A stretch of DNA of 46,563 bases, taken from the IMG/VR virus record IMGVR_UViG_2861038214_000001, positions 1 to 46,563 of that record; one strand, 5' to 3'. Origin of the DNA: a virus (taxonomy: Duplodnaviria > Heunggongvirae > Uroviricota > Caudoviricetes). The position numbers were made by a program, and so were the translations under genes. This document shows, in pieces, positions 5,386 to 45,556 of this stretch (the stretch's first letter is position 1; each line of letters begins with the position of its first letter). The notes under the pieces were generated by a model. It had not been told where the DNA came from and did no database searches. It saw nothing but the letters and a program-made list of their open reading frames with translations.

Positions 5386-5856
5386 CTAATAAAATACCCA
5401 ATTTTCTGTTTCTTGGTTGTGTCCAAAGTTATATTCAATATCTGGTGTTGATGTATCAATATTCTTCATCCCATCAACAAGAGTTGATACAACAGCCAAA
5501 TCTTGTTTGATTCTCATTAAATGGTATTTCTTCCGGCGCAATAAACTTTCAATGGCAAGTTTCTTCGTTGGGAATGCAAAAGATCTTTCTGCATTTTTTG
5601 CTACTTTCTTAATTGCATATCTATTTTTCCTTTGTTTCCATTCCTGTAACCACTGATTTGGTGCTGGTTTAAAATTAACAATCCAATGCGCAGGAACCAA
5701 CCATGCATAATGCTCTGTCTGATGAAAAGCTATATATTGAAGTGCGAATATTTTTATCCCATCTTCTTCAACTGTCGCCTGGAATCTCCAGAAAACAGGC
5801 ATTCCATCATGTTCAGTTTCTGATTCAGGAAAAGGTACGCTCCATGATTTTGTCAT
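5386..5856 (-). CDS. hypothetical protein (156 aa), AT-rich moron gene
   Basis: ORF track; GAGGTGAG SD; markedly AT-rich relative to flanking phage genes; no family recognised. Confidence 0.6.
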   Translation of the reverse strand: MTKSWSVPFPESETEHDGMPVFWRFQATVEEDGIKIFALQYIAFHQTEHYAWLVPAHWIVNFKPAPNQWLQEWKQRKNRYAIKKVAKNAERSFAFPTKKLAIESLLRRKKYHLMRIKQDLAVVSTLVDGMKNIDTSTPDIEYNFGHNQETENWVFY

Positions 5857-6187: not shown

Positions 6188-6526
6188 CTATGACCATTTT
6201 TTATTTGGATTTCGTTGGTGAGCGTGATTAACAACTCTGTGCATTACATCCTCATATTTTTCATCTTCAATTTTTTCGACATCGCGAGGAAATGGTGTTG
6301 CTAATGCTTTGTCAACTTTGTCCATTGGTTCTTCATTAATCTTATATTCAGGACCGTCATCTATAGCATTAAATCCAGGTGTTACACCGTTTTTTAATGC
6401 ATATGCTATCCTTTTTTCCCATCTCGCTATTCTCCTCCTGTCTCGAGATGTAAGACCTCTATCAGATACTTTTCTGTTTTGTCCGCGGTCAGGATTAACA
6501 TAAATAGTCTTTTTCACCATAAGCAT
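6188..6526 (-). CDS. hypothetical protein downstream of N (about 112 aa; Arg-rich N-terminus)
   Basis: ORF track 6188..6532 (TTG) with likely ATG start a few codons in; position equivalent to lambda ea10. Confidence 0.55.
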   Translation of the reverse strand: MLMVKKTIYVNPDRGQNRKVSDRGLTSRDRRRIARWEKRIAYALKNGVTPGFNAIDDGPEYKINEEPMDKVDKALATPFPRDVEKIEDEKYEDVMHRVVNHAHQRNPNKKWS

Positions 6527-6528
6527 AC

Positions 6529-6834
6529 TCAATAAGCACCGTACGGTAGTTTACTGTACAATTTTATTTTTTGGACTGCATGTATTTTGTTTCCTAACGG
6601 GTTTGAATCTTTGTAATAAATACTTCTATTTTTTCGAACGACTTCTTCTTTCTTCTTGCAGCAAAGGCTTCCTAGTGATGCTGCTTTGTCTGCTCTGACG
6701 CAACCAGAGAGCTTTAGCGCAATTTTTCGCGCCAGTGCTTCATTACTGCGTCGCTCGGCAATAAGTTCTGCTCTGCGAGCTTTGTAGCGGCTTTTTGCCG
6801 TACCTTTGGATTCTTTCCAGACAATGGTTACCAT
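6529..6834 (-). CDS. N: N transcription antiterminator, phage 21-type (arginine-rich motif GTAKSRYKARRAELIAERR)
   Basis: ORF track 6529..6864 trimmed to ATG with AAGGAG SD; ARM matches the phage 21 N peptide from memory. Confidence 0.8.
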   Translation of the reverse strand: MVTIVWKESKGTAKSRYKARRAELIAERRSNEALARKIALKLSGCVRADKAASLGSLCCKKKEEVVRKNRSIYYKDSNPLGNKIHAVQKIKLYSKLPYGAY

Positions 6835-6944: not shown

Positions 6945-6984
6945 TCTCAACGGTTAGGTTGAGAGTCCGTCGATGTTAAAGAGC
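6945..6984 (-). promoter_or_regulatory. nutL (boxA GCTCTTTAACA and boxB hairpin TCTCAAC-CTAACC-GTTGAGA, minus strand)
   Basis: boxA near-consensus and boxB stem-loop between pL and N. Confidence 0.6.
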
Positions 6985-7029
6985 CTGCCAATCTGTTCCG
7001 TTTGGCTTCCAGCGTCCTGCTGATGGAAA

Positions 7030-7110
7030 TGATAGTCACATATTGTGATTTAATGGTCAATCACAAAATGTGTAAAATAAAGGTGTGACACGTTATGTGT
7101 ATGATTTTTT
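7030..7110 (-). promoter_or_regulatory. pL promoter (-35 TTGACC, -10 GACTAT on minus strand) with three TCACA-N3/4-TGTGA operator-like palindromes (OL)
   Basis: perfect palindrome TCACATATTGTGA plus two degenerate copies overlapping promoter hexamers. Confidence 0.5.
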
Positions 7111-7312
7111 TGTGTAAATAGTTTTACCCGCGATGGTTTTGCTTACTTAAGTCGGTGGCAACAGCAGGATGGGTGCTGAAAAGTTCGAAAAACGAGCGAA
7201 GGTGGTGGTGGCGAGATGGCGGGATATGGGAGTTGTATTAAGAATTATAGTAATTTAATCAATAGTTTGGACCGGCGGGCAGGTGCTGTCCTGATAGTGA
7301 TCGGCGGACAAT

Positions 7313-7336
7313 AAAAAACCCGGCTCGGTGGCCGGG
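7313..7336 (-). terminator. intrinsic terminator after rexB (tIMM-like; CCCGGC/GCCGGG hairpin + U-run)
   Basis: seen in sequence immediately after rexB stop. Confidence 0.6.
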
Positions 7337-7771
7337 TTATTCTTGTTCTCTGGTCAAATTATATAGTTGGAAAACAAGGATGCATATATGAATGAACGAT
7401 GCAGAGGCAATGCCGATGGCGATAGTGGGTATCATGTAGCCGCTTATGCTGGAAAGAAGCAATAACCCGCAGAAAAACAAAGCTCCAAGCTCAACAAAAC
7501 TAAGGGCATAGACAATAACTACCGATGTCATATACCCATACTCTCTAATCTTGGCCAGTCGGCGCGTTCTGCTTCCGATTAGAAACGTCAAGGCAGCAAT
7601 CAGGATTGCAATCATGGTTCCTGCATATGATGACAATGTCGCCCCAAGACCATCTCTATGAGCTGAAAAAGAAACACCAGGAATGTAGTGGCGGAAAAGG
7701 AGATAGCAAATGCTTACGATAACGTAAGGAATTATTACTATGTAAACACCAGGCATGATTCTGTTCCGCAT
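7337..7771 (-). CDS. rexB: RexB, membrane component of Rex abortive-infection/exclusion system (144 aa, about 4 TM helices)
   Basis: ORF track; size, hydrophobicity and sequence match lambda RexB as I recall it; position between cI and N. Confidence 0.8.
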   Translation of the reverse strand: MRNRIMPGVYIVIIPYVIVSICYLLFRHYIPGVSFSAHRDGLGATLSSYAGTMIAILIAALTFLIGSRTRRLAKIREYGYMTSVVIVYALSFVELGALFFCGLLLLSSISGYMIPTIAIGIASASFIHICILVFQLYNLTREQE

Positions 7772-7786
7772 AATTACTCCTGATAA

Positions 7787-8626
7787 TTAATCCTTAACTT
7801 TGCCCACCTGCCTTTTAAAACATTCCAGTATATCACTTTTCATTCTTGCGTAGCAATATGCCATCTCTTCAGCTATCTCAGCATTGGTGACCTTGTTCAG
7901 AGGCGCTGAGAGATGGCCTTTTTCTGATAGATAATGTTCTGTTAAAATATCTCCGGCCTCATCTTTTGCCCGCAGGCTAATGTCTGAAAATTGAGGTGAC
8001 GGGTTAAAAATAATATCCTTGGCAACCTTTTTTATATCCCTTTTAAATTTTGGCTTAATGACTATATCCAATGAGTCAAAAAGCTCCCCTTCAATATCTG
8101 TTGCCCCTAAGACCTTTAATATATCGCCAAATACAGGTAGCTTGGCTTCTACCTTCACCGTTGTTCGGCCGATGAAATGCATATGCATAACATCGTCTTT
8201 GGTGGTTCCCCTCATCAGTGGCTCTATCTGAACGCGCTCTCCACTGCTTAATGACATTCCTTTCCCGATTAAAAAATCTGTCAGATCGGATGTGGTCGGC
8301 CCGAAAACAGTTCTGGCAAAACCAATGGTGTCGCCTTCAACAAACAAAAAAGATGGGAATCCCAATGATTCGTCATCTGCGAGGCTGTTCTTAATATCTT
8401 CAACTGAAGCTTTAGAGCGATTTATCTTCTGAACCAGACTCTTGTCATTTGTTTTGGTAAAGAGAAAAGTTTTTCCATCGATTTTATGAATATACAAATA
8501 ATTGGAGCCAACCTGCAGGTGATGATTATCAGCCAGCAGAGAATTAAGGAAAACAGACAGGTTTATTGAGCACTTATCTTTCCCTTTATTTTTGCTGCGG
8601 TAAGTCGCATAAAAACCATTCTTCAT
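7787..8626 (-). CDS. rexA: RexA, sensor/activator of Rex exclusion system (279 aa)
   Basis: ORF track; length and sequence (MKNGFYATYRSKNKGKDK…) match lambda RexA as I recall it; AT-rich like lambda rex. Confidence 0.8.
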   Translation of the reverse strand: MKNGFYATYRSKNKGKDKCSINLSVFLNSLLADNHHLQVGSNYLYIHKIDGKTFLFTKTNDKSLVQKINRSKASVEDIKNSLADDESLGFPSFLFVEGDTIGFARTVFGPTTSDLTDFLIGKGMSLSSGERVQIEPLMRGTTKDDVMHMHFIGRTTVKVEAKLPVFGDILKVLGATDIEGELFDSLDIVIKPKFKRDIKKVAKDIIFNPSPQFSDISLRAKDEAGDILTEHYLSEKGHLSAPLNKVTNAEIAEEMAYCYARMKSDILECFKRQVGKVKD

Positions 8627-8738
8627 AATTCAATCCATTTACTATGTTATGTTCTGAGGGGAGTGAAAATTCCCCTAATTCGATGAAGATTCTTGCTCAA
8701 TTGTTATCAGCTATGCGCCGACCAGAACACCTTGCCGA

Positions 8739-9386
8739 TCAGCCAAACGTCTCTTCAGGCCACTGCGCCTTAACTACCTTGCCTATGATGCGGCAGCTAT
8801 GGTCGCAATCCAGTGTTCTATATGCCGGGTTTAAAGGTACCAGGTAACTAACCCCTGCATCCTTCTCATACTTCTTGAACGTTGCCTCTGAATCACCATT
8901 TGCAGAAGCCACGCAGAAATCCCCAGACTCTACCGGCTCAGCCGGATCAACGAGTATCAGCATGCCTTCCGGAAAACTTGGACGAACCCCCTGAGGCGCC
9001 GTCATTGAATGCCCCTTCACCTCAAGCCAGAAAGCTTTTTCGCTGGCTTTTGTGGTCGTTGGGACCCATGCCTTTGCATCGCTGGCTGTGTAGCTTCCCA
9101 CCTCCGAAAATGGCCCGGCCTGCACTGAAGAAAATAACGGGTATTCATATTGGCGAAATACGGCGTCTGAATCCTCGCCAAACATTATTTTTGCCGGAGA
9201 TACGCCGAGTGCCGCCCCAAGAACCAGCGCGTCATCCGCGCTAACCTTTCTTGTTCCTAACTCGTAGTTCCCCAGGCGTGAAGGCGCAGCCCAGCCGCAA
9301 AGCTTGGCCAATTGAGCCTGGCTAAGTCCTTTAGCTTCTCTAAGGGACTTGATCCTTTCCCCGATAATTTCATGCATCGTTTTCAT
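8739..9386 (-). CDS. cI: CI-type prophage repressor (HTH_XRE N-domain, S24 LexA-like autoprotease C-domain)
   Basis: ORF track; Ala-Gly cleavage site (VQAGPF), Ser (GHSM) and Lys (FKKY) dyad conserved; divergent from cro. Confidence 0.85.
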
Positions 9387-9394
9387 CCCTTAAA

Positions 9395-9480
9395 TGTAAC
9401 ACGCAACGTGATTGAACTCTGTACACGAATTGAGGTTGACTGTTAATCACAAATTGTGTGTAATGGGTGTGTGATTAATG
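9395..9480. promoter_or_regulatory. OR operator region with pR (-35 TTGACT 9436..9441, -10 TGTAAT 9459..9464) and TCACA-N-TGTGA-like operators
   Basis: promoter hexamers with 17-nt spacer overlapped by palindrome TCACAAATTGTGTG; between divergent cI and cro. Confidence 0.55.
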
Positions 9481-9494
9481 CTAGGGAGACCGCA

Positions 9495-9713
9495 ATGAAC
9501 AAAATTGCCCAGCAGCGAAAAAAAATCGGAGTTTCGCAAGCTGTACTAGCTTCAGCAATTGGTTGGGGGCAATCCCGCATCGCCAACTATGAGCTGAATA
9601 TCCGTACTCCTGGCCTTAACGATTGCCGAATGATCGTAGAAGGCCTCAGGAAGTTAGGGTGCCAATGTTCTTTGGATGATGTTTTCCCTCCATCCAGTAA
9701 CAAAGCCGCCTAA
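9495..9713 (+). CDS. cro: Cro-like HTH regulator (72 aa)
   Basis: ORF track 9456..9713 trimmed to ATG with GGGAGA SD; HTH motif; position. Confidence 0.75.
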   Translation: MNKIAQQRKKIGVSQAVLASAIGWGQSRIANYELNIRTPGLNDCRMIVEGLRKLGCQCSLDDVFPPSSNKAA

Positions 9714-9721
9714 GCAGTACC

Positions 9722-9762
9722 CGCTCTTTAACAGTCATGGCCTTTCACCTCTAACCGGGTGA
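9722..9762 (+). promoter_or_regulatory. nutR (boxA CGCTCTTTAACA; boxB hairpin TCACC-TCTAACC-GGTGA, phage 21-type)
   Basis: seen in sequence downstream of cro. Confidence 0.65.
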
Positions 9763-44158: not shown

Positions 44159-45316
44159 TTACACTCCTGCACGACCATCGATGTAATCAGCCCACCACTG
44201 CATCATTTCTCTGCGCTTATCGAGATACTGCGCATGGTTGTAAATACCGCGCACAGATCCGCCGTTGGCATGTGCCAGTTGCACTTCAATAGCGTCAGCA
44301 GGCCATTCGTGCTCGTTCATAATTGTGCTGAATTCATGCCTGAATCCGTGACCGCTTTCCAGACCCTCATAGCCGATTTGTTTGATCACAAGCAATACCG
44401 CGTTCTCGCAGATTGGCTTCTTCTTATCGTTGCGACCGGCAAAAACAAACTCTGATACTGGTTTAGTGATTGAGCTTAGCGTAGTGAGAAGTTCAACCAC
44501 CTGGTCTGACATAGGAACCACATGAATTTTGCGACCCTTCATCACACTGGCGTCGATGGTGATAATCCTGTTTTCAAAATCGACGTTCTTCCATTGCATG
44601 GAACGAAGCTCTTTCGTTCTTAGGGCTGTATAGCGTAAAACCTTGGTCGCAATGAGCGATACGATGCTTCCTGAAAATGTTGCCAGTGCTTTGTTAAATG
44701 CCGGGATCTGGTCTGCAGGAAGAAACGGGAAGTTTTTCTTGCGGTATCCCTTCATGGCGTCAGCAAGGTCAGGTGCCGGGTTATATTTAGCCCTACCAGT
44801 GACAATAGCGTAACGGAAAACCTCGCCACATCTTCTGCGGGCTTTGTTGGCTCGCTCCATTGCACCGCGATCTTCAAATCTGCGGATTACTTCCAGCAGT
44901 TGCATCGGCTCAATATCCAGAATCTCGAGACCGCCGATGATGGGTAAAATGTCGTCATCAAACATTTTGGCAAGTTCAGTCGCATACCCTACAGACCACA
45001 CTTGCTTCTTGTGCTCGTACCATTCCTTGTAAATGGCACTAAAGGAGTTGTTGTTAGACGAAGCCTTTTTCGCTTTTACCGGATCTATGCCAACCGAGAT
45101 GTCTTTCCTCGCAGTCCATGCTTTATCCCTTGCCTCCTGCAAAGTCATAAGCGGATATTTTCCGACAGTCAGGATTTTCTCCTTACCGTCAATCTTGTAG
45201 CGAAGCTGCCATACCTTTTTCCCTGACACAGGGACATAAAGGTACAGGCCATTACCATCGAGAAGGCGGTATGGTTTTTCTTTCGGCTTTGCTGCTTCAA
45301 TCTGCTTAACGGTGAG
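44159..45316 (-). CDS. intS: tyrosine integrase, P4-type (IntS-like, 385 aa from MLTVKQ…)
   Basis: ORF track 44159..45355; DUF4102 arm-binding N-domain; catalytic R…HxxR…Y region; start chosen at internal ATG by analogy to IntS (GTG at 45355 is the alternative). Confidence 0.85.
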   Translation of the reverse strand, partial: LTVKQIEAAKPKEKPYRLLDGNGLYLYVPVSGKKVWQLRYKIDGKEKILTVGKYPLMTLQEARDKAWTARKDISVGIDPVKAKKASSNNNSFSAIYKEWYEHKKQVWSVGYATELAKMFDDDILPIIGGLEILDIEPMQLLEVIRRFEDRGAMERANKARRRCGEVFRYAIVTGRAKYNPAPDLADAMKGYRKKNFPFLPADQIPAFNKALATFSGSIVSLIATKVLRYTALRTKELRSMQWKNVDFENRIITIDASVMKGRKIHVVPMSDQVVELLTTLSSITKPVSEFVFAGRNDKKKPICENAVLLVIKQIGYEGLESGHGFRHEFSTIMNEHEWPADAIEVQLAHANGGSVRGIYNHAQYLDKRREMMQWWADYIDGRAGV

Positions 45317-45480
45317 CATGGGTAAAAATCCGGTGGGTAAAATTATTTTATCCACTTTTTACCCGTCATGGAGTGCGGCTGTCAACGATCTGACGCGAAC
45401 CATTACGAACTGTGAATCTATGGAAGGCTTGCTATTCAGGGGATTTTGCGGACTGGTACGGATGGGAGCGAACTGATAAA
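45317..45480. promoter_or_regulatory. att arm / intS promoter region with GGGTAAAA direct and inverted repeats
   Basis: three GGGTAAAA(A) copies around the int start; candidate integrase arm-type or RDF sites. Confidence 0.4.
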
Positions 45481-45556
45481 TGGTGTCCCCTGCAGGAATC
45501 GAACCTGCAATTAGCCCTTAGGAGGGGCTCGTTATATCCATTTAACTAAGAGGACA
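45481..45556 (-). tRNA. argW: tRNA-Arg (anticodon CCU)
   Basis: minus strand reads GTCCTCTTAGTTAAATGGATATAACGAGCCCCTCCTAAGGGCTAATTGCAGGTTCGATTCCTGCAGGGGACACCA; cloverleaf with CCU anticodon, encoded CCA. Confidence 0.9.
45495..45510. repeat. 16-bp segment of argW T-arm duplicated at 221..236 (candidate att core)
   Basis: exact match seen in sequence. Confidence 0.5.

Follow-up and report, generated by a model that had tools for sequence, protein, structure and literature searches.

A lambda rexAB cassette behind the cI gene of an mEpX1/VT1-Sakai-type E. coli prophage

The window analyzed here, a stretch of 46,563 nucleotides, is 100% identical to positions 1409529–1456091 of NZ_LT838196.1, the genome of the E. 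coli isolate WI1. WI1 is a clinical isolate from France and carries a prophage of approximately 45 kb between torI and intS/tRNA-Arg. On the minus strand, the repressor gene cI (9386–8739) is followed by a 112-bp spacer, rexA (8626–7787), rexB (7771–7337), and a terminator (7338–7313), and past the terminator come OL/pL (7102–7032), nutL (6985–6945), and N (6834–6529). To the right of cI lie OR, pRM, and pR (9396–9464), a 72-aa cro, nutR, and cII. This is the layout of the lambda immunity operon, with rexA and rexB oriented like the repressor gene, placed directly downstream of it, and ending at an intrinsic terminator. The positions of the ORFs and a hairpin scan agree with the first-pass annotation of this DNA, which had put rexA and rexB between cI and N with a terminator behind them. 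Both genes are already named in RefSeq (NZ_LT838196.1), as “protein rexA” and “protein rexB.” The features of the operon are as follows:

8739–9386, minus strand: cI, 215 aa, helix–turn–helix plus S24 peptidase (Pfam Peptidase_S24, 3.1e-26), heading the cI–rexA–rexB operon
8627–8738, minus strand: cI–rexA spacer, of which 8627–8707 is lambda-type cassette and 8708–8738 lies within a 58-bp common patch
7787–8626, minus strand: rexA, 279 aa, the sensor of the Rex system, a cytoplasmic dimer that binds DNA
7827–7856, minus strand: sigma-70-like promoter in distal rexA, TTGCTA-18-TATACT with an upstream TG, from a consensus scan
7337–7771, minus strand: rexB, 144 aa, the inner-membrane component, with four hydrophobic segments
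7313–7338, minus strand: intrinsic terminator, the equivalent of TIMM, of the PRM/PLIT transcript, with hairpin AACCCGGCCACCGAGCCGGGTT followed by the T-run TTTTATTG

Family, fold, and the four-segment architecture of RexB place both proteins in the lambda Rex exclusion system. RexA matches Pfam PF15969 with E = 3e-97 (cut-off 25 bits), the PADLOC RexA model with 1.6e-109, and the solved lambda RexA chain 8TWQ_A with E = 1.6e-183. RexB matches PF15968 (E = 8.5e-92) and the PADLOC RexB model (8.6e-61), and its hydropathy profile has segments at approximately residues 3–30, 42–69, 80–111, and 112–139. All 144 residues of RexB are identical to those of lambda RexB, and RexA is identical to lambda RexA at 278 of 279 positions, the sole substitution being R19C. 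In an ungapped comparison of window positions 7315–8765 with lambda (NC_001416, 35803–37253), we counted four mismatches in 1451 bases (99.7% identity); three are loop bases of the terminator hairpin, and the fourth is the Arg19 to Cys change in RexA. A megablast search of phage records returned matches at 99.3–99.7% identity to lambda itself, to several phages resembling it, and to an old record for “phage 434 rex1/rex2.” The match to lambda is far beyond chance. The first-pass annotation had described rexA and rexB of lambda-type size and sequence at 7337–8626, and this is borne out exactly at those positions by the ORFs, the family matches, and the comparison with lambda. The alignment to lambda rexA/rexB that it had suggested as a check gives near-complete identity, with no sign of the low identity that would have spoken against its description.

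The surroundings of the cassette are of a different type. The elements that define immunity are the following:

9495–9713, plus strand: cro-type repressor, 72 aa, Pfam HTH_3, a RefSeq CDS of the mEpX1/VT1-Sakai type
9397–9461, no strand assigned: OR region, with three 17-bp operators (9397–9413, 9421–9437, and 9445–9461)
9396–9425, minus strand: pRM, overlapping OR, from the VT1-Sakai annotation with 0 mismatches
9436–9464, plus strand: pR, overlapping OR, from the VT1-Sakai annotation with 0 mismatches
7032–7102, minus strand: OL region, with operators 7034–7050, 7059–7075, and 7086–7102, mapped from the VT1-Sakai annotation
7032–7060, minus strand: pL, from the VT1-Sakai annotation with 0 mismatches

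The repressor is not lambda CI, as had been proposed earlier. The two proteins share 48% amino acid identity overall; the N-terminal DNA-binding domain is the less similar part (32%) and the C-terminal domain the more similar one (62%), and the last nine codons of the gene are identical to those of lambda cI. On inspection by eye, the repressor of the window retains the Ala-Gly site at which LexA-like repressors are cleaved, along with their Ser and Lys motifs. The same RefSeq protein, WP_001299796.1, is encoded in the window and in strains 81EVA, N921, G3/10, and YZ_2_2. All six operators annotated in VT1-Sakai, together with pL, pR, and pRM, map onto the window with 0 mismatches, and the same holds for the site annotated there as a rho-dependent terminator of the pR transcript and for the promoter and CII-binding site annotated at the start of cII. 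Relative to mEpX1, the window is 98.6% and 99.6% identical in the two flanks of the cassette, and DNA identity to this mEpX1/VT1-Sakai type amounts to 98.8–99.6% across cI–cro–cII. Judged by the sequences of cI, cro, and the operators, the immunity type of the window is thus that of phage mEpX1 and of the Stx1 prophage VT1-Sakai. We also considered mEp235 as a phage of the same immunity type and rejected it, as it covers merely 21% of the 3.4-kb query; mEp235 and mEpX1 have been assigned to separate immunity groups (PMC3442831).

The antitermination elements belong to yet another type:

6529–6834, minus strand: N antiterminator, 101 aa, with the first ~60 residues of phage-21 type
6945–6985, minus strand: nutL of phage-21 type, boxA GCTCTTTAACA and boxB CTCAACCTAACCGTTGAG, identical to nutL of DE3 imm21
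9725–9762, plus strand: nutR of phage-21 type, boxA GCTCTTTAACA and boxB TCACCTCTAACCGGGTGA, both identical to those of DE3/imm21 nutR

As the imm21 reference, we used the DE3 prophage of BL21(DE3), which we take, from its published construction, to be a lambda derivative carrying imm21; the phi21 motif in the N protein of DE3 and its N/nut matches are consistent with this use. The arginine-rich motif of N in the window is identical to the phi21 N peptide (PDB 1NYB) at 22 of 22 positions. Of the first 60 residues, 59 are identical to DE3/imm21 N; the remaining ~40, at the C-terminus, bear no relation to N21. The DNA breakpoint within N relative to imm21 lies at 6612. At the DNA level, the segment 6612–7026 (nutL and the first two-thirds of N from its 5′ end) shows 96.4% identity to DE3 imm21, and the segment 9703–10167, with nutR and cII, shows 92.1%. 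The nutL of the window also differs from that of VT1-Sakai at only one position. These matches identify the N/nut antitermination module of the window as phage 21-type, as had been claimed for N, nutL, and nutR.

The claim had gone further, describing the operators as phage 21-like and the whole as a phage-21-type immunity region, and here the comparison with imm21 came out differently. We detected no DNA similarity to DE3 imm21 in OL/pL (7027–7336) or in cI/OR/cro (8766–9702), and the operators match mEpX1/VT1-Sakai instead. The imm21 region has a P22-c2-like cI of 216 aa, a 61-aa cro, and operators with TTAAG...CTTAA half-sites, whereas in the window the operators follow an ACAC/TCAC...GTG pattern and cro is a 72-aa HTH_3 protein; cI, cro, and the operators are all unrelated to their imm21 counterparts. 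In addition, merely 314 bp separate N and cI in imm21 (DE3), and this interval is without rex genes. Common to phage 21 (imm21/DE3) and the window are both nut sites, most of cII, and the first ~60 residues of N, in which the RNA-binding motif lies. Because cI, cro, and the operators are unlike those of imm21, we rejected the label of a phage-21-type immunity region. Next to N, the ORF at 6526–6188 on the minus strand is identical to HK022 Nun (PDB 6ALG) at 107 of 109 positions, and mEpX1 shares this arrangement of N and Nun with the window.

Both edges of the lambda-type segment were set by a three-way comparison of the window, lambda, and mEpX1. At the left edge, the ~25-bp terminator is all that lambda has in common with the recipient backbone; the terminator hairpin (7338–7317) begins right at the rexB stop codon. 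The VT1-Sakai feature annotated as “rho-independent terminator for pRM transcript” maps onto this terminator with 0 mismatches. The loop bases in the window are those of the recipient, as in VT1-Sakai, and not those of lambda. The terminator is kept behind every cargo examined and forms the left boundary of the cargo slot; it is a conserved slot boundary and not lambda's own copy. At the right edge, 58 identical bases (8708–8765) are common to lambda and the recipient, made up of the last nine codons of cI and the 31 bases that follow. In each of four relatives sharing this immunity region, similarity to the window breaks off at 7337/7338 and at 8704–8726. The junctions on both sides of rexAB are therefore sharp, and the mosaic arrangement noted in the first reading of this DNA stands. 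Since the terminator and the 58-bp patch are common to lambda and the recipient, homology was available for an exchange, and homologous recombination in these two conserved patches would be its simplest route.

In the relatives, the slot between cI and the terminator holds other genes:

mEpX1: a 159-aa DUF6932 protein and a 310-aa protein, the PADLOC candidate system PDC-M63A/B
VT1-Sakai and O157:H7 strains: H0053, 183 aa, phrog_12602, function unknown
Strain 81EVA: a 348-aa protein, phrog_6191, function unknown
Strain YZ_2_2: a HigB toxin, an HTH protein, and a hypothetical protein, forming a toxin–antitoxin locus

The cargo was inspected in five representatives among the 104 genomes with this cI. 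As relatives with the same cI carry four other cargos, at least five cargos, rexAB among them, are interchangeable in this slot, and all would be transcribed together with the repressor. Searches with H0053 and the 348-aa protein gave no match in Pfam or PADLOC, and PHROGs returned only families of unknown function. A possible, albeit doubtful, generalization is that in this immunity group the interval from the cI stop codon to the terminator is a swap site for defense cargo transcribed with the repressor, in which case H0053 and the 348-aa gene would act against phages or in lysogenic conversion, with expression in the lysogen. In a weaker variant of this reading, RexA has become adapted to the foreign CI through R19C, a change fixed in all three hybrid modules described below.

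Among 5426 complete E. coli genomes, lambda-type rexAB occurs in 98, always at ≥99% identity, and many of these are K-12 laboratory lysogens. The window-type cI occurs in 104 of the 5426, mostly O157:H7. The two occur together in only three genomes, those of WI1 (France), N921 (Switzerland), and G3/10 (Germany). These three share R19C and the same junctions, and their replication and recombination modules differ; RexA of G3/10 carries F207S besides R19C. Because R19C is common to all three genomes, the hybrid cI–rexAB module most likely arose once and then moved between backbones, as far as these sequences tell. SfI and ev243 were considered as extra heteroimmune carriers of rexAB and rejected: their cI and cro have the length and relative position of those in lambda, and they cease to match the window at the very point within cI where lambda does. 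They appear from this to be lambda-immunity phages, hence not additional precedents.

The shared features of the three genomes bear on a trivial explanation, namely an artifact of assembly or contamination by which laboratory lambda DNA was mis-joined into the prophage. The near-perfect identity to laboratory lambda, and the abundance of K-12 laboratory lysogens among the rexAB matches in the genome collection, are what such an artifact would produce. WI1, N921, and G3/10 are, however, independent assemblies that share the junctions and the non-lambda residue Cys19, and on this ground we rejected the artifact, whose probability we regard as negligible. The junctions moreover lie in short homology patches at the slot that other cargos use, and the terminator loop is that of the recipient, not that of lambda.

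The substitution itself raises the question of whether the cassette works. It could be an inactive passenger, through R19C or because the foreign pRM yields RexA and RexB in the wrong proportion. In keeping with this, R19C is present in all three hybrid modules, with F207S added in G3/10, and the combination is rare (three of the 104 genomes with this cI). Yet position 19 varies in functional-looking homologues: lambda has Arg, and the RexA homologues of Hafnia and Klebsiella phages have Leu or Thr, so that R19C falls at a variable site. In term searches of the RexA structure paper (PMC11077077), we found neither a mention nor a mutant of Arg19, the lone match to “R19” being R196. We saw no signs of inactivation in the rexAB sequence of the window, where both ORFs are full-length with no frameshift or IS insertion and RexB is unchanged, unlike in strain E06, where IS1 interrupts rexA. 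The module has also been maintained in prophages of three distinct backbones, each from a different country. Taken together, we judge an inactive passenger to be quite improbable.

The explanation that we consider highly probable is that the window carries the abortive-infection cassette rexAB of lambda, gained by recombination into the slot between cI and the terminator of a heteroimmune prophage of the mEpX1/VT1-Sakai type with a phage-21-type N/nut module. In its favor, the cI–rexA spacer and all DNA internal to the cassette are conserved with lambda, and the immunity region annotated in VT1-Sakai has the identical pRM, operators, and terminator. In lambda, PRM transcribes cI–rexA–rexB up to TIMM (bioRxiv 10.1101/2021.04.19.439022; PMC11077077), and PLIT is a promoter in distal rexA that gives an extra rexB transcript (bioRxiv 10.1101/2021.04.19.439022). 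The DNA at the promoter-like site 7827–7856 is identical to lambda, and we regard this predicted site, from its position and sequence, as candidate PLIT, which would serve transcription of rexB only. In the lysogen, resident CI bound at OR would activate its own promoter, pRM, so that rexAB would be expressed from a foreign promoter. The cI–rexA–rexB message would run to the terminator at 7313–7338, and the second promoter may supply extra rexB transcript.

If the system works as in lambda, RexA dimers in the cytoplasm would then sense a superinfecting phage. In the model of Parma et al. from 1992, activated RexA is said to open an ion channel formed by RexB; membrane potential and ATP then fall, and the infection is aborted. 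In the lysogen studied here, RexA activated by the infecting phage would likewise open the four-helix RexB in the inner membrane, leading to collapse of membrane potential and ATP and to abortion of the infection. The RexA structure paper (PMC11077077) reports that RexA and RexB interact physically and jointly block growth of T4 rII and that their co-expression leads to energetic defects in the host; its introduction describes the molecular mechanism of Rex as still debated and the channel model as classical, not structurally proven. From the near-identity to lambda, we expect that the WI1 lysogen would exclude T4 rII-type phages. Classical literature holds that Rex activity depends on the RexA:RexB ratio. 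In the window, this ratio would be set by the foreign pRM, and we count this against our preferred explanation.

RexA may also push the resident CI/Cro switch toward lytic growth, and the main selected role of the cassette could accordingly lie in tuning the lysis–lysogeny decision of the prophage, with RexA binding CI and DNA and stabilizing the lytic state and with RexB antagonizing RexA. Lambda RexA has been reported to bind CI, apparently via the C-terminal domains, and to favor the lytic transition independently of RexB (bioRxiv 10.1101/2021.04.19.439022). The lambda-like C-terminal domain of the resident repressor, with its 62% identity and identical last nine residues, fits such an interaction, as does the position of rexAB, which is always directly behind a cI, the Hafnia and Klebsiella phage homologues included. 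An identical cI nevertheless precedes unrelated cargo too, among it a candidate defense system and a toxin–antitoxin locus, which implies that the switch works without Rex. The two roles are furthermore not mutually exclusive. We hold switch tuning to be unlikely as the main selected role, and abortive infection remains our preferred one.

Compared with the lambda cI–rexA–rexB operon, the window has the same rexA and rexB, the same spacing, cI–rexA spacer, and internal promoter region, and the same position of the terminator, whereas the repressor, cro, operators, pL, pR, pRM, N, nut sites, and terminator loop are different. Compared with mEpX1/VT1-Sakai, the relation is reversed: cI, cro, cII, OL, OR, pL, pR, pRM, nutL, and the terminator are 98–99.6% identical, and the slot is occupied by PDC-M63A/B in mEpX1 and H0053 in VT1-Sakai versus rexAB in the window. 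Hafnia phage yong1 and Klebsiella phage ST101-KPC2phi6.1 have the same cI–rexA–rexB order, but their RexA proteins are 71–76% identical, as diverged orthologues, whereas the cassette of the window is essentially lambda's own. Lambda-type rex genes in a heteroimmune phage have a classical precedent in phage 434, which is heteroimmune to lambda. Its record V00639 (“rex1,” “rex2”) is 99.7% identical to the window; the immunity specificity of 434 differs from the mEpX1/VT1-Sakai type, and as V00639 comprises 1561 bp, its junctions are only partly comparable.

Knowledge of the Rex system goes back to Benzer's work on rII, and the feature described here is already known and annotated, being an ordinary example of phage mosaicism. 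It carries little weight as a discovery, given that the genes are lambda's own and are named in RefSeq. It does provide a clean, base-resolved example of a defense cassette moving between heteroimmune lambdoid prophages via the terminator and the patch at the end of cI. The hybrid is also a natural test of whether the effect of RexA on the CI/Cro switch needs the cognate lambda CI. A mildly new angle lies in the defined cargo slot and its two uncharacterized occupants, one of them in the Stx1 prophage of O157:H7, which are reasonable candidates for new prophage-encoded defense genes.

The slot from the cI stop codon to the terminator of the pRM transcript, which rexAB occupies in the window, holds other cargo in related prophages and phages, as follows.

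L005 (VT1-Sakai) 996-1547: H0053, 183 aa, phrog_12602, behind an identical cI
L006 (strain 81EVA) 1249-2295: 348-aa gene, phrog_6191, behind an identical cI
L002 (phage mEpX1) 2446-3854: DUF6932 protein (159 aa) and 310-aa protein, in the rex slot
L014 (E. coli YZ_2_2) 748-2089: HigB-family toxin, HTH protein, and hypothetical protein, behind an identical cI

H0053, which is the version of the slot found in O157:H7 Stx1 prophages, and the 348-aa gene share the cI-to-terminator position of rexAB downstream of an identical cI. Searches of both proteins against Pfam and PADLOC returned zero matches, and the two are candidate genes for defence or conversion that the lysogen would express. The mEpX1 pair matched the PADLOC candidate defence system PDC-M63A/B, with E-values of 1.8e-41 and 7.5e-45, and the HTH protein accompanying the HigB-family toxin in YZ_2_2 is likely its antitoxin.

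Among matches to rexAB in E. coli genomes other than that of the window (H91-H93 and H95), RefSeq labels lambda-type rexB “biopolymer transporter ExbB” in some genomes, and rexA of strain E06 is split by IS1. The former is inconsistent annotation, and the latter is decay of the cassette outside the window.

The ends of the prophage are marked by two features of the window.

1-201: torI, excisionase-like gene, at one end
44159-45555: intS adjoining tRNA-Arg, at the opposite end

This arrangement, and the site, are those of the K-12 KplE1/CPS-53 element. The late region is unlike that of lambda and encodes many hypothetical proteins and an SGNH/GDSL hydrolase, which is probably a tailspike.

Three features of the window lie in the pL operon or at N.

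5386-5856, minus strand: 156-aa ORF, within an AT-rich part (GC about 0.33-0.39) of the pL operon
6188-6526, minus strand: Nun-like ORF, 112 aa
6529-6834, minus strand: N gene, with an internal breakpoint at 6612/6613

The 156-aa ORF gave zero matches in Pfam and PADLOC and may be a further accessory (moron) gene. The N gene is mosaic, in that its first ~60 residues are those of imm21 N (DE3 prophage) and its last ~40 are unrelated. Because the same DNA breakpoint also divides the window from the prophages of N921 and G3/10, the other two of 5426 complete E. coli genomes that pair rexAB with a window-type cI, these comparisons suggest that the C-terminal part of N has been swapped independently of the RNA-binding motif.

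Immediately 3' of this phage-21-type N gene, in the N-then-Nun order also seen in mEpX1, lies the Nun-like ORF, which RefSeq labels “hypothetical protein.” Its product is identical at 107 of 109 residues to the HK022 transcription-termination factor Nun (PDB 6ALG chain N). The Nun of HK022 targets the nut sites of lambda and thereby excludes that phage. By analogy with HK022 Nun, this single prophage would hold an anti-lambda factor adjacent to lambda's own Rex system.
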